This document shows, piece after piece, positions 1,807 through 42,758 of a DNA stretch of 44,088 nucleotides. This DNA comes from a virus (taxonomy: Duplodnaviria; Heunggongvirae; Uroviricota; Caudoviricetes): positions 1 to 44,088 of IMG/VR virus record IMGVR_UViG_2541047912_000004; one strand, given 5' to 3'. Positions within the stretch are counted from its first letter, which is position 1, and every line of letters begins with the position of its first letter. The notes below the pieces were generated by a model. It was not told where the DNA came from. It saw only the letters and a program-made list of their open reading frames with translations, and searched no databases. The translations under genes and the position numbers were made by a program.

Positions 1807-1821
1807 TTAGTATAAAAAAGT
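1807..1821. other. attR: Prophage attachment junction, lambda core copy 1 (bacterial B' arm on the left, phage P arm on the right)
   Basis: TTAGTATAAAAAAGT matches the reverse complement of the lambda 15-bp core GCTTTTTTATACTAA at 14/15. The left flank cgtttcgctcaag is the complement of the attB arm ACTTGAGCGAAACG. The right flank (about 1822..1975) resembles the lambda P arm (gtgacctgtaacaga is the complement of TCTGTTACAGGTCAC). Confidence 0.8.
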
Positions 1822-2343
1822 TGAATGTGAAACGGTAAAAACCATTAATATCAACGCATTATAATTGATTCAGTCTAAAAAATAGACTGCATAATGCTAC
1901 AAAACACAACATATCCAGTCACTATGAATCAACCACTTAGATAGTATTAGTGACCTGTAACAGAGCATTAGCGCAAGGTGATTTTTTGTCTTCTTGCGCT
2001 AATTTTTTGTCAACATACTGGGTTATCTGAATTTACAACCATGCTCAGTATCTCGATAAGCGCAGGGAGATGATGCAGTGGTGGGCGGACTGGATTGATG
2101 AAAAGGTGGAGTAATCCATCTTAACTATCGAATGGCACAAAGCCTCGCAATCCAGTGCAAAGCTTTGTGTGTCTCATCAACTACCGCAAGTATCGATCGA
2201 TTGAGACTTGGATGATAGAATAAATTCGTAGCACTGTTTTTTAAAGTATCATCTCGCTCATGGTTACGTGATAGAAAAAGGACAAAATAATCTTAAATTT
2301 AAAAGCATATAAATCATACAAATAAAATTGTGGTGGGTGCGTA

Positions 2344-3342
2344 ATGTCTGATATTCGACAAAATAGAATAGAGTTAAATGAAGTGCATATAGCTCGCTCC
2401 ATGGCTATATTTCTAGTTGTTTTACTTCATTCTTCAGGTGCTTTTTTTATGCAGTTTGGAGATCATTGGTGGATTGTTAATTTATACAGTTCTTTTTCAA
2501 GGCAGTGTATAGGTCTTTTTTTTCTTATCACTGGATACCTTTTTTATGAAAAAAACATAAACCCAACAGCACACCTAAAAAAAGGAGTGTCGAGATTGAT
2601 AATACCATTCATATTTTGGTGGGTGGTATATTATATCTACAATACAGAGATTAACAACAAATCATATAATTCTATATTTCAACCAAGTGAGGTACACCTT
2701 TGGTTTATGTATGCATATATTTGTATATATATGTTTTTACCAATAATTTGCAACTCATTAAAACACATACCAACATATTACATTTTAATTATTGTAAGCA
2801 TGCTTTTTTACTCAAATTCCATTGTTCCTGTAGTTGATAAAACGATAATGAAGGTAACATGGTTTGATGTAAAACTAGTGTCTGAAAATGGGATATATAT
2901 CCTTATTGGGGCAATAATAAGGAGATATAACGATAAAATAAAAAAATGCAATGCAGTGATACCATTGGTGATTATTGTTATGTCGTGCCTGTTAACATCA
3001 ATGGCGTCTAGTTGGTGGTCTGAAATAACAGGCAGGCCTGAGCAGTTTTTCTTTAAAAATACATCTCCACTTGTATTAATATGTGTTATTTCTTCATTTA
3101 CATTATGCATGTCATACTCAAAAATAATTAGCAAAAGATTAATGAATTTATTTACATCAATATCAAATGTTTCATTTGGTATATACTTCGTCCATTTCTT
3201 TTTTGTTCGAGAAATTAGACTCGGGTATAATCAAGAAAACGCATATTTCATGATACCATTGCTAACAATCATTTATTTTTTAATGTCATATTGCATATCA
3301 ATAATTCTAAGCAAGATCCCTTTGCTTAGAAAAGTAATATAA
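2344..3342 (+). CDS. Integral-membrane acyltransferase family 3 protein (O-antigen acetylase-like, candidate lysogenic conversion gene)
   Basis: 332-aa highly hydrophobic multi-pass protein. The N-terminal region carries an R..A..LVVLLH motif typical of acyltransferase-3 enzymes. Strongly AT-rich. Convergent with the tailspike, with adjacent stop codons. Placement after the tailspike and next to att parallels oac in phage Sf6. Confidence 0.75.
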   Translation: MSDIRQNRIELNEVHIARSMAIFLVVLLHSSGAFFMQFGDHWWIVNLYSSFSRQCIGLFFLITGYLFYEKNINPTAHLKKGVSRLIIPFIFWWVVYYIYNTEINNKSYNSIFQPSEVHLWFMYAYICIYMFLPIICNSLKHIPTYYILIIVSMLFYSNSIVPVVDKTIMKVTWFDVKLVSENGIYILIGAIIRRYNDKIKKCNAVIPLVIIVMSCLLTSMASSWWSEITGRPEQFFFKNTSPLVLICVISSFTLCMSYSKIISKRLMNLFTSISNVSFGIYFVHFFFVREIRLGYNQENAYFMIPLLTIIYFLMSYCISIILSKIPLLRKVI

Positions 3343-5589
3343 TTATGGATTATTAACCTTCCATCTTTTATCATAGTAATGCAAATATCCCTGAGACGTT
3401 AGTGTCATATGGACAATCGCTTGGGATATTTGCGCGTTCTGAAAATTAACTCTAATAAATACTTGAGTGCCAATTGTTATTTTTGATACAGATATCCCGT
3501 CAAGAGTCTTGTCTCCTTGTATTTTATTAACCCAAACACCTGACGAAGACAAGGTTGCCTGATCCTTTCCGCTTATACTAAATATAATTTTACCTCCTGT
3601 TGCCAGTGAGGTGTTTACTCCATTTTGAGATATTGGAATTATTGTAATTTCACCAGCAATGAAAACACCATTTTTGTATTTAGATTCCTCACCTTGTTCA
3701 CAAATTAAAATATCAATACATCTACCCCATGGTACTAGGATTGTTGCATTTTCAGTTTTTACTTGTGGATATACAGCTGAAACACCTGCAGATTCGAAAT
3801 TTTTTGCTGATAAAACAACTCCGTCAGATCCATTTCTAAATCCCATTCCTGTATGATCACCGTATGTCCTTCCATGAGAGATGAATCCTCTTACATACTC
3901 TTCGGATACTACGCTACCAGTGGTTTCCTTCTGAAAGATAAATGTTTCACCAAAAGAAAAACCACGACATTGGTATTGGCTCTGATAATTTTCTGAGTTC
4001 TTAAAAAAGGAAATGCCTTTATATGCTGTTACATAGCCAGATCTAAATTGAACGGAAACAGGGGTTGTTTGTTCATCTGGAGGTAACTCCACAAAATGTG
4101 TAACATTTTGGCTGTTTGATTCCTGTAACCATACAGAAACACCATCTATAATCATGGTTGAAAATCTACTGTTTATTTCTAACTCAGAAAAATCAAGAAC
4201 ATGATCACCTGTAACACCCTCAACTCCAAACCCATCAATACTTAAAGACCTGAACTGATAGAATTTATGCGGTAACTCACAACCATCAGCTGCAATATTC
4301 ATTGCGCTAGTGTACATTAATGGGTAAGGACTTATAATTGGTTCATATGTTTCTCTATCTATTGCAGCCCCCCAAAGATACCCAACATTACAATGTCTTG
4401 CCCAGTTGGAAGAGAATGTAGTAGATGTGCCAGCCAAACCGAAACCATAGATACAATCATATGCTTGGTTGTTTGTAACATTACTGACAAAGCATGATAA
4501 GGGAAGTGCAAATTTATAATGTAGAAATATGTTATTTTTAATATCATATTCACTACCCCCGCCAAAGGTTTGTGTTTGACCAGAAATGACCAATGGGCTA
4601 CCTGAATATTCATCGTCAGCGTTGCGAAAACACATATTCTTTACTTTAAGATTGTGCCCCCAACTTCCCATAACAAAACCACCACTTCCTGATGTATAAA
4701 CAATACTTTTTTGTGGATTAATCCCATATAGATTTAGACTAATCCCTTCCCATCTAAACTGGCTAATGTCAATTTGAGTGTTACCAATATATATAGGCTG
4801 GTCTATGAAAACAGGAAGTTTAGTTAGATAAGCTTTATTAAGTGCTAATCCATCATTTGTTACACCTGTTAAATCAACGCCACCCATGCTTGGCGCTCTA
4901 GGATACCCTGTGGCCTGAATAGTACTCCAGTCAATATATGGAGCATCCATCCACGCTCCAAACATACGTGGTGTTACGTACCCCTTACCTTGAAGATCAC
5001 GTTTCCAGCGTTTACCACCCGCAGTGACAATGACCATGCCGTTATCATCTGCAGAAGTAGAATCTGTGAAATCGGCCACAAACAGACCACCACCAGTATC
5101 ACCTGATACTGTCGGCTTCATGCCTGTAGTGTGGAAGTCGACGAAAATCTTTTGCTGATCTCGCTCAGGCTCAATTGTCCTTAACATTGCTATATCAGGG
5201 CATGTCCCGATGTATTTAAGACCGTCTTCCCCTGATAGAGATACTTTAAGCTGATCAGGATCATACTTCAGCACATTTGGGAATTTGAACTGCTGTGCAC
5301 CATATGCATCATAAACAGCCATAGAATGGCCTTGCACAGTTACGAACTTGGCAATCTGTCCGTTATATACCGGATATCCAGCATCGTTAATGATGATTGG
5401 TTGCGAAACAGGAACGTGAGAACCGTCTTCATTCTCCACATAAACCTGAATCTGGTTTTCAGGATTTACCGGGTCAGTGTCAATTTTACCGATATAAATT
5501 TTGCCATTGGCTACGGCTTTAAAAGAACGAGCCATAGTGAAGAGTTGCGAAGGCATGCTTACCACAACATTTGCGGTGATATCTGACAT
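3343..5589 (-). CDS. Tailspike protein (P22 gp9-like N-terminal head-binding domain, divergent C-terminal receptor-binding domain)
   Basis: The N-terminus [43 protein letters not shown] closely matches the P22 tailspike head-binding domain. Start set at the internal ATG 5587..5589 (GGAG upstream); the ORF track extends 16 codons further. Confidence 0.85.
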
Positions 5590-5677
5590 TTCATTGCTCC
5601 AGACGAATGATATGATGCAACCATGATGTGATTGCATACCGAAATGGTACTATTGAGTATTTATCCAGTAGGTTACG

Positions 5678-5971
5678 ATGCCATTCCACCCAACTGGTGA
5701 GGCATCAAGGATGTACAGCAAATACGACGAGGCGCAGTTTCACTTGAGACTTCCGCATGAACTCCACGCGAAAATTAAGCAGCGTGCGAAGATGAATAAC
5801 AGGTCGCTGAACTCAGAGATAATTGCAGCGATTGAAGAATCATTGGCTAAACAAAGCTCTGCATCAGTTTACATTGACGATGCAGAGCGTATGGCAGAAC
5901 AACAATCTGATATAGTTAAGAAAATTGTCTTTGATACGCTCAAAGAGCTATATAAAAAAGACAGCAGCTAA
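5678..5971 (+). CDS. mnt: Mnt-like ribbon-helix-helix repressor
   Basis: Similar to P22 Mnt (..NNRSLNSEI.., AERMAEQQSDIVKKIVFDTLKELYKK versus P22 AERLADEQSELVKKMVFDTLKDLYKK). An alternative start at ATG 5711 gives 86 aa, closer to P22 Mnt length. Confidence 0.7.
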   Translation: MPFHPTGEASRMYSKYDEAQFHLRLPHELHAKIKQRAKMNNRSLNSEIIAAIEESLAKQSSASVYIDDAERMAEQQSDIVKKIVFDTLKELYKKDSS

Positions 5972-6060
5972 CCATCAGTTACGGAGGATTTATGCAAAGA
6001 GATATGATGAATATTGCGTTCTACATATTTGGTTTTTGCACGTTCCTGGTGTTTGAAAAG

Positions 6061-8058
6061 CTATTCTGACAAAGCATCAGACTTAGCCCCCTGCGTCAGA
6101 GCGTTAATTGCCTTTTGTGCCTGCTGCATTGCTTTCTCAAAGGCTGTTGATCCGCGTGGGGTGTTTGCCATTCGGAGCATTGCATTTCTGAATGGTTCGC
6201 TCTCATAGGCGCGAGTAAGAAGTCCGTAGCTTACCGCTGCGCCAGTTGTCGCCGGGTTCATTGCCGTCCCATACCCGATAATGAACGGGATGGTTTGCTG
6301 CCCTGTTGGTGTTGTTACTGCCGCTTTTGCAGCCTGCTGCGTGGATTGCAGGTAGTTTTTCAATCCTTTCAGATAAGCAGCGTCCTGCCCCTTAAATGTG
6401 ATGCCAGTCTGGTTTTGCAGGATGTTAAGCTGTCGAAGGAACTGGTCAGGGGATCCGCCAGATTTCTCCATCGCCTTTCCAATGATGCCATTGCGCATTT
6501 GCGCCCTGCCAACACGACCAACTGAGTTATACAGAGTCTTAATTTCCGATTTGTTCTTGCTGAATATCATGTTGTTGACAACTTCCGGCGTCAGATCGCC
6601 TTTCATGAGAACATTCTTCAGCCTGGTATTCTTTAGTTTCGCTGCTTCGTCAGCATAGACGGCATTGGCCTGCTGATATTTACGGAGAGTATCGTTGCCA
6701 AGATTCTGACCAATGGCACCATTGATATCGTCGGTCATTGCCTTGTAAACGCGCTGAATGGCAGCATCGGAACGGTTTGGTAGCACTGGTCGTTCACCCT
6801 TCACGTCCATTCTGAACTGGCTGCGCAGATCGCTTAATTGCTTCAAATCCAGATTTACCGGACCATCAGGACCAGCATTGCGAATAAGCTCATCACGATA
6901 GGATTGAAGTTTTGAAATCGTCTCGCTATCAGCGACCTTACCAAGCTTCTGCAGGTTAGATATCTCAGTATCAATCTGCTGAATTGCTCGCACAGGCTGA
7001 ATGTTTACTCCAGCCATAGCATTCTGAACCTGCTCCAGTCGATTACCGGCAGCACGACGAATTCCTGATGTTTTCGCTTTAAGGCTGTCAATAACAACTG
7101 CCGGATCGTACTCGCCGAATTTATCAGCAAATCTCTGCACCAACTGGCTTCTCGCTTCCTGTTGCGTTGCTCTCATTCCGCTTGTGCCAGCCAGAGGGAT
7201 ATTTTCTGCTGTAGTCTGCGCCATTTTTCCGACGCGGGAAGTTGGTTGTAACAGGTCTGTGGTGTGCAGAGGAACTCCTTCACGCTCTGCAAATCTGATA
7301 GCCTGTTGCGCTTCTGGCGCAATAGAACCACGAACGCCACGATAAGCAGCACCTAACCCACGTCCGGCAGCGTTAATAGCACTGCCAGCCAGCACACCAA
7401 CGCCTAAATCGGTGGCGAGTGCTTCCGCATCATCTTTCGCACTATTTGCAGCAAGTGATCCAACTGCGTTCTCAGCGAGAAGGCGAGTTGCCCCCTGAGC
7501 AATTCGACCAGCAAGTGTTGGTGCCTGTGCTGCCGCTCTCTCAACGCCAGCAGGAGTGAGGTAAGGCAATGCTTCAGCAAATACCCTTCCCTCTGTCGTT
7601 TGTGGAGTCAGCGCGCCTTGCTGAAGGCCAAAGCCCTGCTCTAATCCCTGCGTTGTTACTCGTGGCGCTGGTTGATATGTACCATCGCCAATACCGAGTT
7701 TACCGCCAGCCCAAGCCGCAGCGCTTGTTACAGCATCGGCAACTGATGCAGGTATGTTTGCCACGTTCACGCCAGCCTGCACCAGTCCGCGACCAGTCTC
7801 TTTTACTGCTTCGCCAAGATCAGACATAAATCCATTTTGCTGTGGTTGTTGCTGTGCTACTGGTTGTTGTGTCTCCACTGGCTGCACAGATGGCAATGGA
7901 TAGGCAGCATAGAAAGCTTGCTTAGCCTGCTCTGCATTGTCTCCGGCTTGCGGGGCAACGACTTCATTGAAGTATTGCTCCTGAGCCTGCACTTTTTGTT
8001 CTGGTGCTAACGCCTGATACTGTGGAGAGGCGATAACATCTTTCCATGCTTTAGCCAT
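6061..8058 (-). CDS. Ejection (internal virion) protein, P22 gp16-like
   Basis: 665-aa Ala/Gln/Gly-rich protein at the gp16 position of the P22 order (14-7-20-16). Start overlaps the stop of the upstream gene. Confidence 0.6.
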   Translation of the reverse strand: MAKAWKDVIASPQYQALAPEQKVQAQEQYFNEVVAPQAGDNAEQAKQAFYAAYPLPSVQPVETQQPVAQQQPQQNGFMSDLGEAVKETGRGLVQAGVNVANIPASVADAVTSAAAWAGGKLGIGDGTYQPAPRVTTQGLEQGFGLQQGALTPQTTEGRVFAEALPYLTPAGVERAAAQAPTLAGRIAQGATRLLAENAVGSLAANSAKDDAEALATDLGVGVLAGSAINAAGRGLGAAYRGVRGSIAPEAQQAIRFAEREGVPLHTTDLLQPTSRVGKMAQTTAENIPLAGTSGMRATQQEARSQLVQRFADKFGEYDPAVVIDSLKAKTSGIRRAAGNRLEQVQNAMAGVNIQPVRAIQQIDTEISNLQKLGKVADSETISKLQSYRDELIRNAGPDGPVNLDLKQLSDLRSQFRMDVKGERPVLPNRSDAAIQRVYKAMTDDINGAIGQNLGNDTLRKYQQANAVYADEAAKLKNTRLKNVLMKGDLTPEVVNNMIFSKNKSEIKTLYNSVGRVGRAQMRNGIIGKAMEKSGGSPDQFLRQLNILQNQTGITFKGQDAAYLKGLKNYLQSTQQAAKAAVTTPTGQQTIPFIIGYGTAMNPATTGAAVSYGLLTRAYESEPFRNAMLRMANTPRGSTAFEKAMQQAQKAINALTQGAKSDALSE

Positions 8059-9359
8059 TAATCACCCCATAGTGAAGAAAAGTTACTGCCAGTAGTAGAT
8101 TGTTGCCCTGGCATATTCTGCACCGGCTCCTGATAATCAAACTGTTTTTTAACAGTGTTCAACTTGCTTTCAAGCTGATTTCTAATCTTTCCGATAGAGT
8201 CACGAAAAGCCTTTTCACTCATTTTGGGGCTTAGGGCACCAACCGCATCGGATAATTTTTTACCCTCAGCATCTGAAAGAGCGCCCATACCCTTCAGGGA
8301 CTGCACCATAGGAAGGAATGTTTGAGCTTTAAAGGTGTCGAGCCTTGCTTCAAAGTTAGCTGCATCAGAGCCAGGAACTGTCGGAAACGCTGAGCGAATT
8401 CCTACTGCTTTTGAAAGGCCGGGGCTTTGCTCTATCTCGTTGAGAGAATCAAGCGCGGTGCTGAACGTATCAACTGCACCCTGAGCGGCGGCCTGCCTGT
8501 CAGCGCGTGCTATGTCAGCCTTTTGCCGAACATCTTCCTGTTTCTGTTTTAGCTCTTCAAGCTTTAACTGATTGCTTTCTCTGGCTATCTGTCTGTCCAG
8601 AGCCTTTTCTTGTAATTCTGCTCTTTGTATTTCACGGGAAAGAGCAGCATTCTGTGCGCTGATGTTCTGTCCACGTATCTGGATGTCCTGACCTCGAGCT
8701 GTTAATGCTTCTCCTGCCTGATTGCTGCGGATTGTCTCTGCCAGTCTGCCTCGGTCAATCTCACGACCAGCCATCTTGTCCTGAACATTGAAGTAGTCAA
8801 TCGGACCGAGAGCAGCCATCCCAAGGTGATCAACAAACTCACCAAATCCTGAAGGATTCTGCTGATACATCTGAGAAACGCTGTTAGGGTCAACACCGAC
8901 GCGCGCCAGCTCCTTGGCGTTGTTTTGCAGCCATGATTGCATTGCTTCTGGAGACGAGGCCGCAAGGCGTGCGCCAGCCGCTAAGGTGCCTATAGAATTG
9001 CGCTGGTCTTCGTCTGCCCACTTCATACCAGACTGAATCTTCTCTAATTGACCAGGATATTTGGTCATCAGATCTCGAACCTGCTGTCGATCACCTGACT
9101 GGATGGCTGCCGCATATTCTTTTTGGAATGCAGCATCCGCTTCCTGTTGCTTTGCGGCTTGATATGTTTGAGCGACACTACCCAGTCCCTGCAACGCCTG
9201 AAGGCCGATGTTATTGCGACCTGAACGCTCCATTTCGTTGTTCTGGCGAATATAGGCCAACGCCTCACTTACATCACTTGCCTTTGGCGCATTTGAGTTT
9301 TGCCCACCGATACCAGCAAGAAAACCGCCTGAGTTGATTCCTTGTTGCCAAGTAGCCAT
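8058..9359 (-). CDS. Ejection protein, P22 gp20-like
   Basis: 433-aa protein at the gp20 position in the P22-like late operon; coiled-coil-rich. Confidence 0.6.
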   Translation of the reverse strand: MATWQQGINSGGFLAGIGGQNSNAPKASDVSEALAYIRQNNEMERSGRNNIGLQALQGLGSVAQTYQAAKQQEADAAFQKEYAAAIQSGDRQQVRDLMTKYPGQLEKIQSGMKWADEDQRNSIGTLAAGARLAASSPEAMQSWLQNNAKELARVGVDPNSVSQMYQQNPSGFGEFVDHLGMAALGPIDYFNVQDKMAGREIDRGRLAETIRSNQAGEALTARGQDIQIRGQNISAQNAALSREIQRAELQEKALDRQIARESNQLKLEELKQKQEDVRQKADIARADRQAAAQGAVDTFSTALDSLNEIEQSPGLSKAVGIRSAFPTVPGSDAANFEARLDTFKAQTFLPMVQSLKGMGALSDAEGKKLSDAVGALSPKMSEKAFRDSIGKIRNQLESKLNTVKKQFDYQEPVQNMPGQQSTTGSNFSSLWGD

Positions 9360-9368
9360 ATTCCCACC

Positions 9369-10043
9369 TTAAAACAATGATCCAAGACCACCGATAATGC
9401 CGCCACCAATAGCGCCAACAGCCGTACCTATTCCTGGCACCACAGAGCCAATCATCGCCCCTGATGCCGCACCGCTCATGGCACCGCCCAAAGCTGATTG
9501 CAGTCCTGATGGTCGGTTAGCATTAGCCGCAGATGCTGCCGCCTGCTGTTGATACAATTGGCTGACGTTGTTAGCGTAGTTCTGTCCGGCATTTGCCTGA
9601 CCTGTAAGAGCACCAAGGCCGATATTTGCCAGATTGTTGTAGTTGTTCATCTGACCTGACAGCCAGTTTTGACCGAGTGTAGGTGCGATTGCTGCCAACT
9701 GGTTTCCTGTTGCTGTAGAGCCTAATCCACCAGTTGCCTCTGCTGCTGCCAGACTCTGGTAACGCGCCTGCCCTGCAAGGTCTTTGTACTGCTGGGAGTT
9801 GTAATACTGGTTAAGAGCCTGACCTTGCCCCTGAAGAGAGGAAAGATTCTGCAACTCTGATACGTACTGTTGAGCGAGTGGCGTGAACGGTGCAAGGTTT
9901 TGCATGTTCGTTTGCCACATTTCACGCTGCAGTTCGATACCCTTTTCAGTTGCGCGTGCCTGGGCTTTTGAACCGCCATCACTGCCACCTTTGCAGTAAA
10001 CAGCTTTGCTGAGGTGCTTATTGGCAATCTGGAAAATTAACAT
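9369..10043 (-). CDS. Ejection protein, P22 gp7-like
   Basis: 224-aa protein with a Gly/Ala-rich C-terminus at the gp7 position. The start is uncertain; the ORF overlaps the upstream gene by 26 nt. Confidence 0.55.
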   Translation of the reverse strand: MLIFQIANKHLSKAVYCKGGSDGGSKAQARATEKGIELQREMWQTNMQNLAPFTPLAQQYVSELQNLSSLQGQGQALNQYYNSQQYKDLAGQARYQSLAAAEATGGLGSTATGNQLAAIAPTLGQNWLSGQMNNYNNLANIGLGALTGQANAGQNYANNVSQLYQQQAAASAANANRPSGLQSALGGAMSGAASGAMIGSVVPGIGTAVGAIGGGIIGGLGSLF

Positions 10044-32101: not shown

Positions 32102-32102
32102 G

Positions 32103-33010: not shown

Positions 33011-33018
33011 GGTGAGAT

Positions 33019-34008: not shown

Positions 34009-34101
34009 GCGCGGCTTTACCGCATACCAATAATGCTTCACGAGAGGTGTTTATTCATGAGCGTAAACGCTGATTAATGAACGCAGTTGATAGGATATAA
34101 A

Positions 34102-34748: not shown

Positions 34749-34885
34749 CCATCAATCACCAGATGCTTCGTGCGGCACAAAACAAAGCAGTAATAGCCAG
34801 ATTTATTGGTGATTCCAAAATGTGGCTTGAAGCAAATAAAGCGATGAAATCAGCTATCAACCTTCCGTGGTATCGCAGGAAATGA
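34733..34885 (+). CDS. kil: Kil-like small protein (50 aa)
   Basis: Hand-translated: MRNEIAINHQMLRAAQNKAVIARFIGDSKMWLEANKAMKSAINLPWYRRK. The ATFIGD.KM motif resembles lambda Kil as I recall it. Confidence 0.45.
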   Translation: MRNEIAINHQMLRAAQNKAVIARFIGDSKMWLEANKAMKSAINLPWYRRK

Positions 34886-34966
34886 GTTTTACAGATAACT
34901 GGTCAGACGAAGAATTCATTCGTCAGATGAACAAAATGCTCAATCAGCACAAAGAACAGGAGAAAG

Positions 34967-35278
34967 ATGATGATTCTGACTCTGAATGATAAGCGTGAAA
35001 TATCGCAAATAATCGCAAGTTTTACTGATGAAGATTACGAACGAATCAACAGTGAAGTTGATCGCCTCTGCAAACGTTGCGACCCAATAAGCGAAATGCT
35101 TCGCTCATATAAACCAGATGAACACACTAAGGACGCTATCGACTGGCTGGAAGATGATGACTGTAACTATCAGGAAAAAGCCGCTGAATGGTTCTGGGAT
35201 GCAATAACCGAAAGAGTTAAGGCTGAATATGCCTTCGCAATATTCAAACGCAGACATATTTATGGAGAAGCAGCATGA
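34967..35278 (+). CDS. Hypothetical acidic protein (103 aa) immediately upstream of recT (Gam position)
   Basis: AGGAG Shine-Dalgarno followed by ATGATG; stop overlaps the recT ATG (ATGA). No recognisable motif. Confidence 0.5.
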   Translation: MMILTLNDKREISQIIASFTDEDYERINSEVDRLCKRCDPISEMLRSYKPDEHTKDAIDWLEDDDCNYQEKAAEWFWDAITERVKAEYAFAIFKRRHIYGEAA

Positions 35279-36186
35279 GCAATATCGTTGAATTCGTTAA
35301 ACAGCAGGAGCAGTTATTCTGCGGAGCATTGACTGAACAGACGGTGACATGGGCTAAGGAAAGCCAGTTTGCAATTCAGTATTTCCAGAAAAACGATTAC
35401 CTGGCTAAAACAGCACTGGCAAATCCAACCAGCGCACAGAACGCCATCATCAATGTTGCGGCGATCGGTATCACCTTAAACCCTGCAAGCAAACTGGCTT
35501 ATCTAGTTCCGCGCGATGGCATGGTTTGCCTTGATATCAGCTATATGGGATTGCTTCATATTGCAATGGAGTCTGGTGTTATCTCATGGGGTCAGGCAAA
35601 ACTTGTTCATGCTAACGATACCTATGAGTCAAACGGGCTTGATAAAGCACCAACCCATAAATACAACGCCTTCGGTGATCGTGGTGATATCGTTGGCGTT
35701 TACTGCACAGTTAAGACGCCGGCAGGTGATTATCTAACGGAAGAGATGAGTCTGGCTGAAATTGAGGCTGTAAGGAAAACAAGCAAGGCGGCATTCAGCG
35801 ATAAAGGACCATGGGTAAATCACTGGAATGAGATGGCGCGAAAGACGGTCGTAAAGCGTGCAAGCAAGTATTGGCCTAAGGCATCACGTCTTGATAGTGC
35901 TATTCACGTACTAAACGAAGAAGAAGGTGTGTGGACTGAACCAGTTATGCCGCACAAATCAGAGGAAGATATCCGCGAAGATGAACGGAAACGCCAGCAG
36001 GAAATAATGGATAAAGCACAACTTCTTTGCGATGAAATGGCTCAGGCAGAAAACATGGACGATTTGAAGCGATATTTTGCAGAAGCATATCGCCTGACAT
36101 CTGGAATGAAATTGCAGCAGAACGTACAAGCCATTTACGCAGAATGCAAAGCGAAACTGGAGGTTGCCAGTGAGCAAACTATATGA
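35275..36186 (+). CDS. recT: RecT-family single-strand annealing recombinase
   Basis: 303 aa; the conserved region GPWVNHWNEMARKTVVKRASKYWP aligns with RecT (GPWVTHWEEMAKKTAIRRLFKYLP). Confidence 0.85.
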   Translation: MSNIVEFVKQQEQLFCGALTEQTVTWAKESQFAIQYFQKNDYLAKTALANPTSAQNAIINVAAIGITLNPASKLAYLVPRDGMVCLDISYMGLLHIAMESGVISWGQAKLVHANDTYESNGLDKAPTHKYNAFGDRGDIVGVYCTVKTPAGDYLTEEMSLAEIEAVRKTSKAAFSDKGPWVNHWNEMARKTVVKRASKYWPKASRLDSAIHVLNEEEGVWTEPVMPHKSEEDIREDERKRQQEIMDKAQLLCDEMAQAENMDDLKRYFAEAYRLTSGMKLQQNVQAIYAECKAKLEVASEQTI

Positions 36187-36652
36187 AATTGCCAATGAAT
36201 ACGCAAAATTGATGGATTCAGATTTAGAACCAGAGATGATTGCTGACACAATAGAAGGCATGGAAGGAGAATTTACCGATAAAATAGAGCAACTTCTTTC
36301 CATTATTAAAAATGAATCTGGTTATGCCGAACGCCTCAAGGAAGAGGCAAAGTCACTGAATGAGCGAGCCGCAGTAATTCAAAATAAGATTGACAGCATC
36401 AAATCATATATAGCGTCATCGCTTGAAATGGTTGGCAAGAAAAATATTCGAGCAGGTATTCACCAGGTAACAATCCGCAAACCGTCAGAAACTGTAGAAA
36501 TCATCGACTCAAGCGCCCTTCCTCCTGAATACGTTGAGTTTGAAACGACAATTAAAGCCGACAAACTGGCAATCAAACACCAACTAAAAGCAGGAATAAA
36601 TATCCCCGGCGCTCAACTCAAAGTTGGGAAACCTTCACTTCTTATCAAATAA
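36170..36652 (+). CDS. Hypothetical protein downstream of recT (possibly Gp157-like)
   Basis: About 160 aa, acidic and predicted helical. Start set at the GTG 36170 preceded by GGAGG; the track begins at a TTG at 36164. Family assignment is tentative. Confidence 0.45.
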   Translation: MSKLYEIANEYAKLMDSDLEPEMIADTIEGMEGEFTDKIEQLLSIIKNESGYAERLKEEAKSLNERAAVIQNKIDSIKSYIASSLEMVGKKNIRAGIHQVTIRKPSETVEIIDSSALPPEYVEFETTIKADKLAIKHQLKAGINIPGAQLKVGKPSLLIK

Positions 36653-36663
36653 CGGTATCGCCT

Positions 36664-36978
36664 ATGAAAAAGACTCCATGGGAGAAATGGGAAGTCGATT
36701 TCTTGCGCGAAGTAGCGGCGACAATGCCAGTTGAAGTTATCGCTGAAAAACTGGAAAGGACTGAAAAAGCAGTAATGGCGAAAGCAACAAGGATTGGCGC
36801 TGACATTGTTAGCCGACTTCGTGGAAGACGCTGGACAAGAGCCGAAGTATCACTTTTCGGTAAGTTCTCCGCAGAAGAAATAGCAATTGCAACCTGCCGC
36901 TCAATTTATTCAGTAAGAGCTATGCGATACAAGCTAAAAAAACTCGATGAAGAAAGAGAAGGCATACGAATAAATTAA
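36664..36978 (+). CDS. Hypothetical protein (104 aa)
   Basis: ORF in the early-left operon; no recognisable motif. Confidence 0.45.
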
Positions 36979-36994
36979 CAAAGAGGAATTAATC

Positions 36995-37159
36995 ATGAGA
37001 GGTCTTGCATACAATCCCGGCATTCTTCCGGCAGAAATGATTAGCCAACGCGTAAAGCCAATGCCATCGAGAGAAGAATTGCTTAAGAGAAAGAGTTTCG
37101 GTTCTGTTAATGACAACAAATATCTGAATGCGATGTGGCGCAAAGGAGGCAACCAGTGA
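36995..37159 (+). CDS. Small hypothetical protein (54 aa)
   Basis: Hand-translated: [54 protein letters not shown]. Shine-Dalgarno AAGAGG; its stop overlaps the GTG start of the next gene. Confidence 0.35.
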
Positions 37160-37929
37160 GCAAGATTGATTATCAGGCACTGCGTGCTAAGGCAGAAAAA
37201 GCAACGTGTGGTGTATGGTCGCTCGAATATGGAGAGAGCCGATTTGATGGTGATGATGCGCTAATTCATCGTGAAGTTGCTGGATATATTCCCATTTGCA
37301 GAATTGAAGGAGCGCATCCAGAAAGCGGTTTCGATGAAGATTTCCAAATGGAACAGCAGGCCAATGCTGAATTCATCGCAGCAGCCAGTCCAACTACCGT
37401 ACTGGCACTGCTGGATGAACGGGAAAGAAACCAGCAATACATAAAACGCCGCGACCAGGAGAACGAGGAGATTGCGCTAACGGTAGGGAAGCTGCGTGTT
37501 GAGCTGGAAGCAACAGAGAACAACCTTATTGATAGTGAATGCCATGTTGCTGAACTGGAAGAAGCGCTACGCGATAAGCAGGTGTTACTTGAAGCCTCAG
37601 AAAAGCGCAACGCAAAATTACAAAGCGAGAATGCATACATCCGCAACCGGTTCAAAGAACTGGACCTGTTAATCGGGAAAAACATTCTGGTCATGCAGGC
37701 TGCCATTATCGAATGGCAGGCAACTGGCGACGCTAAGAGCGGACTGGCATGGATTTATAACACACTGTTTGGCCCAGGCGAATTGCCGGACGAATCTGAG
37801 CAAGATGCTCAGGCCTACTTTAATCGCAAATATGCACCGATTGACGAAAAGCTTATGGCGCTTCACAAGTGGTTTTGGGAACAAAGTGAAGCCGAGCGCG
37901 CCGCTGGCATCAAGGAGGAGTCTGAGTGA
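37156..37929 (+). CDS. Ead/Ea22-like family protein (coiled-coil)
   Basis: The N-terminus ([21 protein letters not shown]) resembles Ea22-like proteins; central coiled-coil. Start set at the GTG 37156 preceded by AAGGAGG; the track begins at an upstream ATG with no Shine-Dalgarno. Confidence 0.55.
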
Positions 37930-38420
37930 TGGTCATTTCACCTATAACGCTGAAAGCGGCGCAGGAATTTATCGCACAGCACCACCGACACAATAAACCA
38001 CCAGTGGGGCATAAATTCAGCATTGGTCTGAGAAATAATGCCGGAGAATTGATAGGTGTGGCGACAGCTGGTCGACCTGTTGCACGACATTTCGACGATG
38101 GATTAACGCTTGAAGTAAATCGCACATGTACCACAGGAGAACGCAACGCTAACAGCGCGCTTTATGGTGCTATCTGGCGGGCAGCAAAAGCTATGGGTTA
38201 TCAACGTTGTATTACGTACACCCAGGCAGATGAATCAGGAGCATCTCTTCGCGCAGCTGGTTTTGTTCGTGTGAAAGAGCTTCCTCCAAGAAAAAGCTGG
38301 GCGGAATCAAGCGTCGCCCTGCGGAGTAAACGCGATCCGGTCGGAAACGGTGGTATTCCTCGTGTGCTCTGGGAAATCAGGAGAATGAGTACCACTGGCA
38401 TTCGCATCAAAGGAGAGTGA
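37929..38420 (+). CDS. Hypothetical protein (163 aa)
   Basis: Start overlaps the Ea22-like stop (TGATG). No confident family assignment. Confidence 0.5.
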   Translation: MVISPITLKAAQEFIAQHHRHNKPPVGHKFSIGLRNNAGELIGVATAGRPVARHFDDGLTLEVNRTCTTGERNANSALYGAIWRAAKAMGYQRCITYTQADESGASLRAAGFVRVKELPPRKSWAESSVALRSKRDPVGNGGIPRVLWEIRRMSTTGIRIKGE

Positions 38421-38421
38421 T

Positions 38422-38709
38422 ATGGCAACTTTGCAGGAATTAATCGACCTGACGCCAGAACAGGAAAAAGCGTGGAATCGCCTTGTGAAGGCTGTAAAGG
38501 ATTTCAGGGCAGCCGGAGGAAAGTTTTATAGCGTCCTGGACACGCTGAGCGCATACAACGGCGAGCACGTTGCCAGCATTGATAACGATAAGGGCTACCA
38601 CACTGCAAGCGTCTATATGCCTAGCATTGATGCGCCAGGGCTAACCAGTTGGGCTGATGATTGGCACGGCATCACGCTGAAAGATGGCGTTGAAGTGGAT
38701 GAGGACTAA
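38422..38709 (+). CDS. Hypothetical acidic protein (95 aa)
   Basis: Tightly packed in the operon; no recognisable motif. Confidence 0.45.
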   Translation: MATLQELIDLTPEQEKAWNRLVKAVKDFRAAGGKFYSVLDTLSAYNGEHVASIDNDKGYHTASVYMPSIDAPGLTSWADDWHGITLKDGVEVDED

Positions 38710-38712
38710 CAC

Positions 38713-39555
38713 ATGACAACTTTCACCGACAAAGAACTGATTAAAGAAATCAAAGAACGAATCAGCAGCCTAGAGGTTCGAGACGATATTGAGCGCCGTG
38801 CTTATGAAATTGCTCTGGCATCGCTGGAAGCAGAGCCTGTTCTGTATCAGTCCTGCACTCGCCCCACCTGGAATAGCGGTGTTCCGTGGACGGAATGGAA
38901 AGAACGAAGTCGTGAGTGCTACGAAGACGATTTGCGTTTTACAGACACGCCTGACCATGCCGGTTGGATATACAAATGTCGAAAACTATACACCACTCCG
39001 CCAGCGCCGATAGCGTTAGAGGCCATTGAAAACGCAATTGAATACATTCGTAGTATCGCTTTTCACATCGATGAAGACGATTACCACGGCAAACATATTG
39101 CGTATTTCATGCGACAAGCATTGGCCTGGCTGGAAGGGCATTCATGCAGCGACGACAGACTGGGTAAAGCCGACAATCAACCAGTACGCGGCAACCAGGC
39201 TGCCGAATCCAATCGCGGTAATGAGTGGACCGGCAATCCTGATATTGATAACGCAATCATCATGCTCGACCGCATAGATACGGCGGAAAGTTACGATGAT
39301 GACCGTATTGAGGCTGTTAAGGCTGTTTTGCGTAGACTGGCAGGCAACTCTCCGGTAACTCCGGATGGTTGGATAAGCTGTAGTGAGCGAATGCCCCCTC
39401 AAGATGATTGGATTTTAATTTATTCAAAGCACGGCGAGTATATGGCAGGACAGGTACAAGGGGAATACGTGGAGTTGAGCGACGGCACTTTATCGTGGTT
39501 AGGGAACGCCTTGTTCTGGATGCCGCTACCAGAACCGCCGCAGGAGGCGAAATGA
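38713..39555 (+). CDS. Hypothetical protein with a DUF551-like C-terminal domain
   Basis: 280 aa; the C-terminal segment (DGWISCSERMPPQDDWILIY..EY..G.......W..LPEPP) resembles the DUF551 phage domain. Confidence 0.5.
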   Translation: MTTFTDKELIKEIKERISSLEVRDDIERRAYEIALASLEAEPVLYQSCTRPTWNSGVPWTEWKERSRECYEDDLRFTDTPDHAGWIYKCRKLYTTPPAPIALEAIENAIEYIRSIAFHIDEDDYHGKHIAYFMRQALAWLEGHSCSDDRLGKADNQPVRGNQAAESNRGNEWTGNPDIDNAIIMLDRIDTAESYDDDRIEAVKAVLRRLAGNSPVTPDGWISCSERMPPQDDWILIYSKHGEYMAGQVQGEYVELSDGTLSWLGNALFWMPLPEPPQEAK

Positions 39556-39812
39556 TGGATGTAAAAGAGAAGGTTTTGCAGGTGATGCGTTCCCGGGCTG
39601 CCCTGCAAGATAAAGCTCTCGGCGGGGAATATCCATTCAGGATGGCAACCTGGAATTTGCGGTTGGCAATGGAGAAGGAATTTCCTGATGAAGAATGGCG
39701 TTCGGCAGATTTGCGCAAAATTCTTATGGAGATGGCTAAAGACGGAACAGTATCTAAAGATAACCATGCCAGCCGGATTGGTCAGGCGGTATGGAGACTG
39801 GAGGTGCGGTAA
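39552..39812 (+). CDS. Hypothetical protein (86 aa)
   Basis: Start at ATGATG 39552 preceded by CAGGAGG, overlapping the upstream stop; the track ORF is over-extended upstream. Confidence 0.45.
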   Translation: MMDVKEKVLQVMRSRAALQDKALGGEYPFRMATWNLRLAMEKEFPDEEWRSADLRKILMEMAKDGTVSKDNHASRIGQAVWRLEVR

Positions 39813-39889
39813 TGGCTAACCTGCAACTTGCCGTCAAAGGTGAATAACAATCCTCGCACTCGCGGGGATTTCTTTTATATGGGGATAAT

Positions 39890-40690
39890 ATGACCATCCA
39901 CTTTCACGGCAGCCCAATATGGGGGGATGAGCATGCCCCTACAGATATGCTGATTAAAGCCCTTTACCGTGATGGTGGGGCTTTTGTTTCATTTGCCAGA
40001 CCAGAGCAGATGAAAAAGATTGCCATGTTCCCTTGTGATATACGCCTTGATAACGGCGCTTTTAGCGACTGGATGAAAGCATTAAAGAAAGGCACTCCGG
40101 TAGACTGGAGTAAGAGACGAGCAAAATTCTACGACTTTGTTGGGAAGTGGTTCAGCAGAATTGAATGGTTTCTTATACCTGACGTTATCGAAGGGACAGA
40201 GGCAGAAAACGACGAGCAGATTGAGTTGGTTCCTGATTGGCTAAAATCAAAAGCGGTTCCGGTCTGGCATACCGACGAATCAATTGAACGTCTTTTACGC
40301 CTTTCTAGCAAATTTGAATGGGTGGCGATTGGATGCTGCGGCCCACACAGGCACATACGCTCTAAATGGTGGGAACAGAGAATGGATGAAGTTTTCACTG
40401 AGCTTTATATCAATCGTAATTTGAAAGTGAAAATTCATGGTCTTCGAATGCTCGACGTGAGAGTTCTTGGTATGTATCCGTTCGCCAGTGCGGATTCTAC
40501 TAATGTTGCTGTTAACGTACCGAAGACAGAGAAGCGATTTCCTGAGATTACCGACAAACTGGCACGTACAGCTGTACTTCGCGCAGCTATTGAAAAGGTG
40601 CACCCACCATCGATATCAGCATGGGTAGACAGAAAGATGAGAGAGCCGGCGCAAGCCGGTTTTTTATTTGAATTCACCGACGCCGCTTAA
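39890..40690 (+). CDS. Hypothetical protein (266 aa); weak TGT-fold-like motifs, function unknown
   Basis: Last sizeable gene of the early-left operon before xis. Contains RLDNGAF and WVAIGCCGP segments that loosely resemble tRNA-guanine transglycosylase motifs (see findings). Followed by a terminator. Confidence 0.55.
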   Translation: MTIHFHGSPIWGDEHAPTDMLIKALYRDGGAFVSFARPEQMKKIAMFPCDIRLDNGAFSDWMKALKKGTPVDWSKRRAKFYDFVGKWFSRIEWFLIPDVIEGTEAENDEQIELVPDWLKSKAVPVWHTDESIERLLRLSSKFEWVAIGCCGPHRHIRSKWWEQRMDEVFTELYINRNLKVKIHGLRMLDVRVLGMYPFASADSTNVAVNVPKTEKRFPEITDKLARTAVLRAAIEKVHPPSISAWVDRKMREPAQAGFLFEFTDAA

Positions 40691-40710
40691 TGCGGATTTC
40701 TTTTATCTGA

Positions 40711-40734
40711 ACTCGCTACGGCGAGTTTTGTTTT
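40711..40734 (+). terminator. Rho-independent terminator
   Basis: ACTCGC-TACG-GCGAGT hairpin followed by TTTGTTTT. Confidence 0.55.
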
Positions 40735-40747
40735 ATGGAGATGATAA

Positions 40748-40915
40748 ATGCACTTCCGAGTCACAGGTGAATGGAATGGAGAGCCATTCAACAGAGTTAT
40801 CGAAGCAGAGAACATCAACGACTGCTATGACCACTGGATGCTGTGGGCGCAGATAGCACATGCAGACGTAACCAATATTCGAATTGAAGAACTGAAAGAA
40901 CACCAAGCCGCCTGA
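40748..40915 (+). CDS. Small hypothetical protein (55 aa)
   Basis: Hand-translated: MHFRVTGEWNGEPFNRVIEAENINDCYDHWMLWAQIAHADVTNIRIEELKEHQAA. GGAG Shine-Dalgarno; followed by a CCGCC-TGAT-GGCGG-TTTTTT terminator (about 40907..40927). Confidence 0.4.
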   Translation: MHFRVTGEWNGEPFNRVIEAENINDCYDHWMLWAQIAHADVTNIRIEELKEHQAA

Positions 40916-40941
40916 TGGCGGTTTTTTATTGGAGACAAGAA

Positions 40942-41094
40942 ATGTCAGATTTGGCTATGAAGGTTTTGAAATGGCAATCAACTGGCGATGTCGGCATCAG
41001 TAGCGCAACTCTTGCCTCAATCGCATGTGGCCTGAAAAAGAATATCTATGGTCATCACTTCGGCGCTCCCCATGACGCAGCAGACTTTCGGTGA
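40942..41094 (+). CDS. Small hypothetical protein (50 aa)
   Basis: Hand-translated: MSDLAMKVLKWQSTGDVGISSATLASIACGLKKNIYGHHFGAPHDAADFR. GGAG Shine-Dalgarno. Confidence 0.35.
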   Translation: MSDLAMKVLKWQSTGDVGISSATLASIACGLKKNIYGHHFGAPHDAADFR

Positions 41095-41355
41095 TGCATT
41101 GCACTTGTTGAGCAGATTCCAGAAATCAGAGATTCATTCAACAAGGTTGCAAAGCGCGTTCCGGCATTCAAAGGAATCCTCAACGAATGGGATTCCCTCG
41201 TTGCTCTGTTGAAGTCTGAAATGAAGATACACGGAAACAAAGCACCAGAGACTTACAGAAGAATCAGCGAGCTACGCAAGGACTACCCATGAAATAACAC
41301 CGCCTCACACTCGGTGAGGCCTGTTCATTGCTCAATGATATCCAGACCTACCATC

Positions 41356-41403: not shown

Positions 41404-41622
41404 ATGTACTTGACACTTCAGGAGTGGAACGCTCGCCAGCGACGCCCAAGAAGCCTTGAAACAGTTCGTCGATGGGTACGCGAGTGCAGGATATTCCCTC
41501 CTCCGGTTAAGGATGGAAGAGAGTATCTGTTCCACGAATCAGCGGTAAAGGTTGACTTAAATCGACCAGTAACAGGTAGCCTTTTGAAGAGGATCAGAAA
41601 TGGGAAGAAGGCGAAGTCATGA
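41404..41622 (+). CDS. xis: Excisionase Xis (lambda-type)
   Basis: The 72-aa product MYLTLQEWNARQRRPRSLETVRRWVRECRIFPPPVKDGREYLFHESAVKVDLNRP.. is essentially lambda Xis. Start at the internal ATG 41404; the track ORF is over-extended. Confidence 0.9.
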   Translation: MYLTLQEWNARQRRPRSLETVRRWVRECRIFPPPVKDGREYLFHESAVKVDLNRPVTGSLLKRIRNGKKAKS

Positions 41623-42670
41623 GCGCCGGGATTTACCCCCTAACCTTTATATAAGAAACAATGGATATTACTGCTACAGGGACCCAAGGACGGGTAAAGA
41701 GTTTGGATTAGGCCGAGACAGGAGGATAGCAATCACTGAAGCTATACAGGCCAACATGGAGTTATTTTCAGGACACAAGCACAAGCCTCTGACAGCGAGA
41801 ATCAACAGTGATAATTCTGTTACGTTACATTCATGGCTTGATCGCTACGAAAAAATCCTGGCCAGCAGAGGAATCAAGCAGAAGACACTCATAAATTACA
41901 TGAGCAAAATTAAAGCAATAAGGAGGGGTCTGCCTGATGCTCCACTTGAAGACATCACCACAAAAGAAATTGCGGCAATGCTCAATGGATACATAGACGA
42001 GGGCAAGGCGGCGTCAGCCAAGTTAATCAGATCAACACTGAGCGATGCATTCCGAGAGGCAATAGCTGAAGGCCATATAACAACAAACCCTGTCGCTGCC
42101 ACTCGCGCAGCAAAATCAGAGGTAAGGAGATCAAGACTTACGGCTGACGAATACCTGAAAATTTATCAAGCAGCAGAATCATCACCATGTTGGCTCAGAC
42201 TTGCAATGGAACTGGCTGTTGTTACCGGGCAGCGAGTTGGTGATTTATGCGAAATGAAGTGGTCTGATATCGTAGATGGATATCTTTATGTCGAGCAAAG
42301 CAAAACAGGCGTAAAAATTGCCATCCCAACAGCATTGCATGTTGATGCTCTCGGGATATCAATGAAGGAAACACTTGATAAATGCAAAGAGATTCTTGGT
42401 GGAAAAACCATAATTGCATCTACTCGTCGCGAACCGCTTTCATCCGGTACAGTATCAAGGTATTTTATGCGCGCACGAAAAGCATCAGGTCTTTCCTTCG
42501 AAGGGGATCCGCCTACCTTTCACGAGTTGCGCAGTTTGTCTGCAAGACTCTATGAGAAGCAGATAAGCGATAAGTTTGCTCAACATCTTCTCGGGCATAA
42601 GTCGGACACCATGGCATCACAGTATCGTGATGACAGAGGCAGGGAGTGGGACAAAATTGAAATCAAATAA
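41600..42670 (+). CDS. int: Integrase Int (lambda-type tyrosine recombinase)
   Basis: The 356-aa sequence (MGRRRSHERRDLPPNLYIRNNGYYCYRDPRTGKEFGLGRDRRIAITEAIQAN.., catalytic region HELRSLSARLY..GHKSDTMASQYRDD) is essentially lambda Int. Overlaps the end of xis as in lambda. Confidence 0.95.
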   Translation: MGRRRSHERRDLPPNLYIRNNGYYCYRDPRTGKEFGLGRDRRIAITEAIQANMELFSGHKHKPLTARINSDNSVTLHSWLDRYEKILASRGIKQKTLINYMSKIKAIRRGLPDAPLEDITTKEIAAMLNGYIDEGKAASAKLIRSTLSDAFREAIAEGHITTNPVAATRAAKSEVRRSRLTADEYLKIYQAAESSPCWLRLAMELAVVTGQRVGDLCEMKWSDIVDGYLYVEQSKTGVKIAIPTALHVDALGISMKETLDKCKEILGGKTIIASTRREPLSSGTVSRYFMRARKASGLSFEGDPPTFHELRSLSARLYEKQISDKFAQHLLGHKSDTMASQYRDDRGREWDKIEIK

Positions 42671-42743
42671 TGATTTTATTTTGACTGATAGTGACCTGTT
42701 CGTTGCAACAAATTGATAAGCAATGCTTTTTTATAATGCCTAC

Positions 42744-42758
42744 TTAGTATAAAAAAGC
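42744..42758. other. attL: Prophage attachment junction, lambda core copy 2 (phage P' arm on the left, bacterial B arm on the right)
   Basis: TTAGTATAAAAAAGC is the exact reverse complement of the lambda core GCTTTTTTATACTAA. The left flank (42680..42743) resembles the lambda P' arm; the right flank aggcttcaacgg is the complement of the attB arm CCGTTGAAGCCT. Confidence 0.85.

Follow-up and report, generated by a model that had tools for sequence, protein, structure and literature searches.

The stretch analysed here (the window) comprises positions 1 to 44,088 of IMG/VR virus record IMGVR_UViG_2541047912_000004, a member of the Caudoviricetes. Its positions 1807-42758 very probably constitute a single, complete genome (~41 kb) of a temperate P22-like podovirus from the clade of CUS-3, JEP4 and 720R6, integrated by a lambda-type Int between its own lambda-like attP and attB-lambda, the lambda attachment site of Escherichia coli. 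A gene-by-gene comparison with lambda (NC_001416), Sf6 (NC_005344), P22 (NC_002371), HK620, vB_EcoP-720R6 (ON470605; hereafter 720R6), JEP4 (MT740315), CUS-3 (CP000711) and mEp043 indicates a lambdoid mosaic. Judged by sequence similarity, its blocks are a lambda xis-int-attP-sib block, packaging and head genes of CUS-3 type, ejection proteins closest to those of 720R6 (93-98%; gp16 and gp20 are also Sf6-like), a private tailspike and acyltransferase, a repressor, Cro and operators of P22 immC type associated with a lambda-type cII, replication genes of mEp043 type, and lambda-type Q, S and R followed by P22-type Rz and Rz1. Each core lambdoid function is present in one copy and in the canonical order, no reading frame is broken, and no transposase or insertion sequence was found inside the prophage.

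The initial annotation placed the element at the lambda attachment site, with the lambda 15-bp core at both junctions and attB-like arms outside. When the window was searched for the lambda common core GCTTTTTTATACTAA with up to 2 mismatches allowed (0.07 matches expected by chance), two matches were obtained. One is exact (15/15; 42744-42758, minus strand) and is the core copy of attL (B-O-P'); the other carries 1 mismatch (14/15; 1807-1821, minus strand, reading ACTTTTTTATACTAA) and is the core copy of attR (P-O-B'), so that the junction repeats are indeed those of lambda. The 7-bp overlap TTTATAC is the same at both junctions (1810-1816 on the left, 42747-42753 on the right). The left flank carries ybhB, the host gene on the bio side of attB-lambda (1240-1716, plus strand), which is 100% identical to ybhB ('kinase inhibitor') in the host flank of ON470605 and is annotated ybhB in the empty-site matches; the right flank carries ybhC, on the gal side (42805-44088, plus strand), annotated as such in all matching E. 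coli genomes. In-silico excision (removal of 1817-42753) splices 1400-1816 to 42754-43150, and the resulting 814 nucleotides align as a single piece, at 100%, with the ybhB-ybhC site as it occurs, without insertion, in several E. coli genomes; 3492 of 5426 complete genomes of this species have this site uninterrupted. Because the spliced flanks match the empty site at 100%, the prophage bounds 1807-42758 are correct, and the element is a precise insertion at attB-lambda.

The core search also recovered the single difference already noticed in the left core copy, T at 1821 on the plus strand, that is, A for G on the minus strand. Lambda Int strand exchange takes place inside the 7-bp overlap. 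Since position 1821 is located outside the overlap, on the P-arm side of attR and within the C core site (CAACTTT vs CAGCTTT in lambda), its variant base would be derived from the phage. Four IMG/VR contigs that differ in their neighbouring sequence have this variant attR junction as well. These data suggest that the base is a phage-borne polymorphism of this att/int lineage and not damage to the core. Its origin by mutation after integration, or by aberrant recombination at a secondary site, appears quite improbable. A late change would agree with the G that lambda, JEP4 and 720R6 all have at this position and with the lack of any match in IMG/VR to an attP rebuilt with both the C and C' variants, of which only the attR form was found, but it is opposed both by the lambda strand-exchange mechanism, which would make this position phage-inherited, and by the recurrence of the variant beside different neighbours. 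As for a secondary site, the host sequences on either side match the primary attB exactly.

The recombination functions are essentially those of lambda, as originally noted. Xis (41404-41622, plus strand; Pfam Exc) has 71 of 72 residues in common with its lambda counterpart (G59S) and Int (41600-42670, plus strand; Pfam Arm-DNA-bind_1 and Phage_integrase) 352 of 356, the four substitutions being I53M, H164P, I248V and E269K. By its domains, Int is a heterobivalent tyrosine integrase that combines an arm-binding domain with the RKHRHY catalytic set, all of which is kept (R212, K235, H308, R311, H333, Y342). Lambda-like P and P' arms lie inside the junctions, again as first described. The P' arm (42671-42743, minus strand) is identical to that of lambda except for one base in C' (GTAGG for GTTGG), a variant also found in the isolated phage JEP4. 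The P arm (1822-1965, minus strand), aligned with those of lambda, JEP4 and 720R6, is 85% identical to lambda 27528-27742; P1, P2 and the H1 and H2 IHF cores are kept (we take these site names from the established lambda att maps), and the Xis/Fis region and the spacers are diverged, so that the function of the sites predicted in the Xis/Fis region is not assured. The attP rebuilt from both junctions aligns end to end with those of lambda (89%) and JEP4 (92%). Beyond the P arm, a hairpin followed by a T-run (1968-2010, plus strand), with a 10-bp perfect stem (TTAGCGCAAG/CTTGCGCTAA) and then TTTTTT, is conserved with lambda 27528-27570 and corresponds to sib/tI. In lambda, this element retroregulates int, a role that it would also have here. 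In the circular phage it is located downstream of int. The homology with lambda extends to window position 2018 (lambda 27528) and hence includes sib/tI; overall, the xis-int-attP-sib block is 98% identical to that of lambda over ~1.6 kb.

Directly past this lambda-derived block lies a remnant of another integrase. It consists of the last 27 codons and the stop codon of an IntS-family gene of Sf6/HK620 type (2031-2114, plus strand), with 96% identity in tblastn to residues 359-385 of the Sf6 and HK620 integrases, and the same remnant abuts the same P arm in JEP4 and 720R6. It is followed by an Acyl_transf_3 gene and then by the convergent tailspike gene, which is the Sf6 order int, oac, tailspike. 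E. coli strain 573 shows the succession argW (tRNA-Arg), full-length IntS, acyltransferase, tailspike, mnt and gp16, which looks like the ancestral arrangement. The following scenario can be drawn: the lambda xis-int-attP-sib block would have taken the place of an xis-attP-int module of Sf6/HK620 type, leaving 27 codons of the old integrase behind. Because JEP4 and 720R6 have the same remnant at the same P arm, we infer that this replacement was a single event in a common ancestor of the three phages.

The genes of the virion were initially described as Sf6/P22-like. The P22-like gene content and order are borne out, since a full P22-type set (terS, terL, portal, scaffold, coat, gp4, gp10, gp26, gp14, gp7, gp20, gp16 and tailspike) is encoded in conserved order on one strand (3343-19858), with the Pfam domains P22_portal, P22_CoatProtein, P22_Tail-4, Phage_stabilise, Phage_tail_NK, P22_gp7, Inj_translocase, Phage_P22_gp16 and Head_binding. 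The genes for packaging and for the head belong to another type. All on the minus strand, TerS (19418-19858) is 100% identical to that of CUS-3, TerL (18006-19421; Pfam Terminase_3) 99.8% to CUS-3 and 99% to Sf6, the portal protein (15806-18004; P22_portal) 99.3% to CUS-3, 55% to Sf6 and 35% to P22, the scaffold (14822-15715) 99.3% to CUS-3, and the coat protein (13550-14803; P22_CoatProtein) 95.7% to CUS-3 and 29% to P22, with no detectable match in Sf6. By these identities, the procapsid and packaging module is of CUS-3 type and not of Sf6 or P22 type. Downstream, likewise on the minus strand, lie the genes for gp4 (12878-13339; 100% to CUS-3 and 720R6), gp10 (11450-12868; 99% to Sf6, HK620 and JEP4, 98.9% to CUS-3), the tail needle gp26 with its knob (10497-11450; 99% to JEP4, 80% to Sf6), gp14 (10018-10500; closest to 720R6, 95%), gp7 (9369-10043; Pfam P22_gp7; closest to 720R6, 93%), gp20 (8058-9359; Inj_translocase; 98% to 720R6, 85% to Sf6) and gp16 (6061-8058; Phage_P22_gp16; 98% to Sf6). 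The Sf6-like virion genes are limited to those encoding TerL, gp10 and gp16 and, less closely, gp20 and the needle.

The immunity region is P22-like, as the initial annotation held on the basis of c2, cro and operators of the form ANTNAAG-N4-CTTNANT. The repressor gene c2 (31451-32101, plus strand; HTH_3 and Peptidase_S24) is 100% identical to those of CUS-3 and JEP4 and 92% to that of P22; cro (31185-31370, minus strand) is 100% identical to those of CUS-3 and JEP4 and 95% to that of P22, and the DNA-recognition helix region is unchanged with respect to P22. Between these genes, OR1-3 (31385-31450) differ from P22 OR at 3 of 80 nucleotides. The operator motif has 7 sites in the whole window against 1.7 expected, among which 3 exact ones at OR and 1 exact and 1 single-mismatch site at OL; OL and PL (32169-32222, at least 2 OL sites) follow timm (32100-32119), and the hexamers of both PR and PL could be located. 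The cII gene (30783-31076, minus strand) is not a P22 c1 but of lambda type (96% to lambda, 99% to CUS-3). On the other side, the early-left operon (32711-41212, plus strand) begins with N (32711-33010, plus strand), whose product of 99 residues is of CUS-3 type (97%; CUS-3 has the same 99-residue form) and is itself composite, residues 1-64 matching the N proteins of HK620 and JEP4 (95-98%) and the last 35 the C-terminus of lambda N (57%). No cIII was detected by homology with the lambda, Sf6 or HK620 proteins; a 44-residue open reading frame (ORF) at 34614-34748, to which P22 c3 gives a weak match (E = 0.04), is the probable cIII.

Replication would rely on two genes of mEp043 type, encoding an O-like initiator of 286 residues (29751-30611, minus strand; 99.3% over its full length to mEp043 gp54) and a Toprim/DnaB-like primase-helicase of 626 residues (27763-29643, minus strand; Toprim_2 and DnaB_C; 99.5% over its full length to mEp043 gp55). 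The adjoining nin region (23396-27686, minus strand) had been called lambda-like, which holds for ninB, ninH and ninI only. It is a mosaic of ninI, ninH, a RusA-family resolvase gene, an hkbD-like gene, roi, a ninF-containing ORF, an MT-A70 methyltransferase gene, ninB and two small ORFs, in which roi and the hkbD homologue (24634-24924, 96 residues) are HK620/CUS-3-like and the RusA-family gene (24242-24637) is 95% identical to that of JEP4 but only 48% to those of HK620 and CUS-3. The MT-A70 family methyltransferase (26119-26709, minus strand; PADLOC MTase_II, E = 2.5e-70) is a candidate for DNA modification.

The proposed lambda-like nature of Q, S and R is supported: Q (22776-23399, minus strand) is 100% identical to lambda Q, S (22019-22342, minus strand) 99% to lambda and 100% to CUS-3, and R (21559-22035, minus strand) 98% to lambda and 100% to CUS-3. 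The same proposal fails for Rz and Rz1, which are of P22/Sf6 type: Rz (21125-21562, minus strand) is 97% identical to Sf6 Rz and 94% to P22 Rz but only 58% to that of lambda, and Rz1, embedded in it (21181-21363, minus strand), is 93% identical to P22 Rz1. Between Q and S, the promoter PR' (22733-22705, minus strand; TTGACT-17-TAAATT) precedes the terminator tR' (22671-22643, minus strand), which has a 13-bp stem, and the Q/PR'/tR' region is collinear with the intergenic region between genes 23 and 13 of P22. The tRNA genes found downstream of Q in Sf6 and 720R6 are absent, as ARAGORN found no tRNA, and Rfam gave no match at its gathering thresholds.

Whole-genome alignment, which had been suggested with lambda, P22, Sf6 and HK620, covered 16%, 19%, 33% and 28% of the prophage, respectively, and upheld its mosaic nature; 45% was aligned with JEP4 and 59% with 720R6. 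The best of these values, 59% with 720R6, is below the ~70% nucleotide similarity over the genome taken as genus-level similarity to a classified exemplar of the P22-like podoviruses, Lederbergvirus in the broad sense. This is a matter of formal classification and does not bear on what kind of phage it is, and many phages assigned to that genus are in the same position. Megablast searches with the prophage in two halves returned no record covered at 80% or more among 50,697 phage records and 5,426 complete E. coli genomes. This exact combination of modules is absent from those sets and its parts are common, which is normal for lambdoid mosaics. P22-like genes are contiguous with ybhB in 20 of 20 complete E. 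coli genomes among the matches listed, the similarity with JEP4, Huey and Gally sets in at the att core, and in GCA_019587585.1 this left half recurs at 99.92% identity next to the same tnpB-ybhB flank. The association of a P22-like phage with a lambda integration module is thus already known from several isolated phages.

CUS-3, a K1-specific P22-like prophage of E. coli RS218, resembles the element in TerS, TerL, portal, scaffold, coat, gp4 and gp10 (96-100%), in c2 and cro (100%), cII (99%), N (97%), S and R (100%), and in roi and hkbD. What sets it apart is an integrase of IntS type that has an att core of its own, a tailspike that is an endosialidase and is accompanied by neuO, the presence of ant, ejection proteins similar to those of HK620, a Q of phage 21 type and replication genes of DnaB type. 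JEP4 and 720R6 are P22-like phages with the same lambda int-xis-attP module and IntS remnant at the P arm. JEP4 also has the C' variant, the same immunity region (100%), needle, portal and coat, and 720R6, which is located at bio-ybhB, covers 59% of the prophage at ~96-98% identity. However, both have another tailspike receptor domain, other downstream cargo and a Q of phage 21 type, and the A variant of the C site is found in neither of them; JEP4 has in addition P22-type TerS and TerL, DnaB-type replication genes and an extra immI-like region, and the primase-helicase of 720R6 is split into two coding sequences. The 720R6 record ON470605.1 starts with 7.7 kb of host DNA (1-7719; uvrB, bioDCFBA, ybhB) from only the attR side and terminates precisely with the stop codon of int. 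Such a structure would be compatible with an assembly derived from a prophage as well as with virion DNA from in-situ (lateral) packaging across attR.

Lambda is related to the prophage by the xis-int-attP-sib block (98%), Q (100%), S and R (98-99%), cII (96%), ninB, ninH, ninI, ea10 and the integration site. It differs in its immunity, replication, recombination and Rz/Rz1 genes, and none of its head and long-tail genes (nu1 to J) is found here, lambda 1-27500 being without match. Sf6 is similar in TerL (99%), gp10 (99%), gp16 (98%), gp20 (85%), needle (80%), Rz (97%) and the int-acyltransferase-tailspike layout, and P22 in C2 (92%), Cro (95%), near-identical operators and gene 23 (98%); both have the same overall order of virion genes. 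In contrast, the coat, scaffold, portal and TerS of Sf6 and P22 are of other types and the integrases of both phages target tRNA genes; gtrABC and a complete immI region are further features of P22, and no similarity could be detected between Sf6 oac and the acyltransferase found here. A further relative is the P22-like temperate phage phiHS3 ('Hueyvirus'), which groups with CUS-3, JEP4 and 720R6, integrates upstream of ybhC, was induced by mitomycin C and performs lateral transduction from the same site (bioRxiv 10.64898/2026.05.19.726188). According to its description, it differs by capsule-specific dual tailspikes and by an O-antigen ligase in the conversion locus (bioRxiv 10.64898/2026.05.19.726188).

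The initial annotation judged the prophage intact, and no inactivating lesion was found. All essential genes have their full length and, with the exception of those for gp7, gp14 and gp20, share 92-100% identity with genes of CUS-3, JEP4, Sf6, lambda or mEp043, phages that have been grown or induced. The regulatory sites that a working circuit would be expected to have were also located (OR/PR, OL/PL, timm, PR'/tR' and sib/tI). The prophage is therefore predicted to be inducible. Several observations weigh against an intact, active phage. The C and C' core sites are each one base off lambda, and the P arm is ~15% diverged in its Xis/Fis/IHF region. Int has four substitutions with respect to lambda, including H164P, which may affect recombination. 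The best matches of gp14, gp7 and gp20 are only to 720R6, a record of uncertain viability, and missense defects are invisible to the methods used. Moreover, the exact 748-residue tailspike turns up in 176 blocks of public assemblies, the one contig compared has the left half at the same site with the same tnpB-ybhB flank, and the whole mosaic is in no complete E. coli genome or phage record searched; such a pattern among assemblies would also fit a vertically inherited, possibly grounded prophage. The element might thus be structurally complete and yet cryptic, missense changes, the variant C and C' sites or the diverged P arm blocking excision or particle formation during vertical inheritance in one E. 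coli lineage. This appears unlikely, as all ORFs are open and near-identical to genes of viable phages, the C' variant is also present in the isolated phage JEP4, the C variant occurs in several different prophages at attB, so that Int evidently used those sites, the overlaps are identical at both junctions, and a related phage at the same site is inducible.

That the region could instead be composite, a lambda-like remnant beside a separate P22-like prophage, or a recent recombinant of the two made in this host, is suggested only by the segments identical to lambda (int-xis, Q, S, R, ninB/H/I, cII, ea10) that are scattered through the P22-like backbone. The probability of such an origin is very close to nil. 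The ~41 kb harbour a single integrase, immunity region, replication module, lysis cassette and structural operon in the standard lambdoid order and no lambda head or tail gene; neither duplicated or truncated second copies of core functions nor internal att-like junctions were seen in the prophage. The two-element reading was rejected, every core function being single-copy. Furthermore, because the joint between the lambda attP and the IntS remnant is also found in the free phage JEP4, the mosaic is older than its presence in this host.

For a single intact phage genome, the following lifecycle can be proposed. In the lysogen, C2 would hold PL and PR off. RecA-stimulated (SOS) autocleavage of C2 through its S24 domain would derepress N-dependent early transcription; Int and Xis, with the host proteins IHF and Fis, would then recombine attL and attR across their identical 7-bp overlaps, and the O-like protein and the primase-helicase would replicate the genome. 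Q would antiterminate at PR' and thereby turn on the late operon. The CUS-3-type terminase would package DNA by the headful mechanism from a site in or near terS, leftward in window coordinates, and S, R, Rz and Rz1 would lyse the cell. If packaging were to start before excision, DNA past attR (ybhB, bio, uvrB) would be carried along, i.e. lateral transduction would occur.

The tailspike and acyltransferase genes lie at the left end of the prophage. The tailspike gene (3343-5589, minus strand) encodes 748 residues with the Pfam domains PF09008 (Head_binding) and PF27114 (Phage_tail_beta); its start is Met17 of a 764-codon ORF, as an exact-protein look-up failed with the 764-residue form and succeeded with the Met17 start. 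The protein fuses a P22-type head-binding domain to a different receptor-binding domain, its residues 130-761 being 46-50% identical to tailspikes of unrelated phages, and it is 80% identical over its full length to the tailspike of strain 573. The convergent gene (2344-3342, plus strand; 33% G+C) encodes an Acyl_transf_3 membrane acyltransferase (Pfam PF01757, E = 5e-34), a candidate O-antigen acetylase and moron. It is 55% identical to the acyltransferase adjoining full-length IntS in strain 573, and although it occupies the position of Sf6 oac, tblastn gave no match to that gene. The segment 2929-4189 (~33% G+C), made up of the 3' half of the acyltransferase gene and the part of the tailspike gene encoding the C-terminal ~280 residues, is the sole part of the left arm strongly diverged from strain 573, the DNA on either side being 95% identical; the exchanged unit seems to cover both convergent ends of the two genes.

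By analogy with known phages, the acyltransferase would probably modify the O-antigen of the lysogen, which the tailspike recognises. In complete genomes, the nearest tailspike/acyltransferase pair shares only 80% and 55% identity, respectively, with the present one, which is low in G+C. We tentatively propose, as a possibility that is far from assured, that 2344-5589 is an undescribed receptor/serotype-conversion cassette and that headful packaging across attR leads to lateral transduction of ybhB-bio-uvrB. Between the tailspike gene and gp16 lies only mnt (5711-5971, plus strand), encoding an Arc/Mnt-family repressor of 86 residues (Pfam Arc and Repressor_Mnt) that is 99% identical to its strain 573 homologue from codon 12 onward. 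No match to arc or ant was found in the prophage, so mnt is the sole part of P22 immI (mnt, arc, ant) present.

Other accessory genes are found mainly in the early-left operon, which encodes, after N, an ea10 homologue, an HNH-AP2 endonuclease, the cIII-like protein, Kil, RecT (35275-36186), Gp157, Ea22-like, Mom-like and DUF551 proteins and further accessory ORFs. The low-G+C ORF at 34087-34614 (plus strand), located between the ea10 homologue and cIII-like/kil, has HNH_3 and AP2 domains like a homing endonuclease and was found at this position in none of the 8 reference phages. The Mom-like protein (37926-38420, plus strand; 164 residues) is a DNA-modification candidate whose match to a PHROG profile of 245 positions is limited to positions 20-159. 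A 266-residue ORF (39890-40690, plus strand) has no Pfam match, and its alignment with PHROG 887 ('queuine tRNA-ribosyltransferase') is confined to positions 10-317 of 509. The protein could represent a truncated or diverged form of this family, or the family name may not apply. PADLOC returned no defence-system match for the unassigned early-left ORFs and recognised only the MT-A70 methyltransferase, the HNH endonuclease and, weakly, PDC-S57 (T5orf172). The last of these corresponds to a protein of 174 residues with a T5orf172/MUG113 (GIY-YIG-like) domain, encoded between the lysis cassette and terS (20431-20955, minus strand) in the place of the rha or kilA-type genes of P22, HK620 and JEP4. 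Just outside the prophage, between bioA and ybhB, lies the gene of a 376-residue TnpB of the IS200/IS605 family (1-1131, minus strand; OrfB_IS605, Cas12f1-like TNB and HTH domains), which some of the E. coli genomes sharing this flank have and others lack (query coverage from 1 or from ~1237); the window begins at its stop codon, and any omega-RNA region would lie outside it.

The significance of these results is mostly one of annotation, and they do not overturn the current understanding of lambdoid phages. They nevertheless provide a clear example of modular exchange among them, in which a tRNA-targeting integrase was apparently swapped for the complete xis-int-attP-sib block of lambda, and the trace left by the former integrase can still be recognised and is common to a clade. 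For the host strain, the element is probably an inducible prophage that may modify the O-antigen through its acyltransferase and may bring about lateral transduction of the bio-uvrB region.

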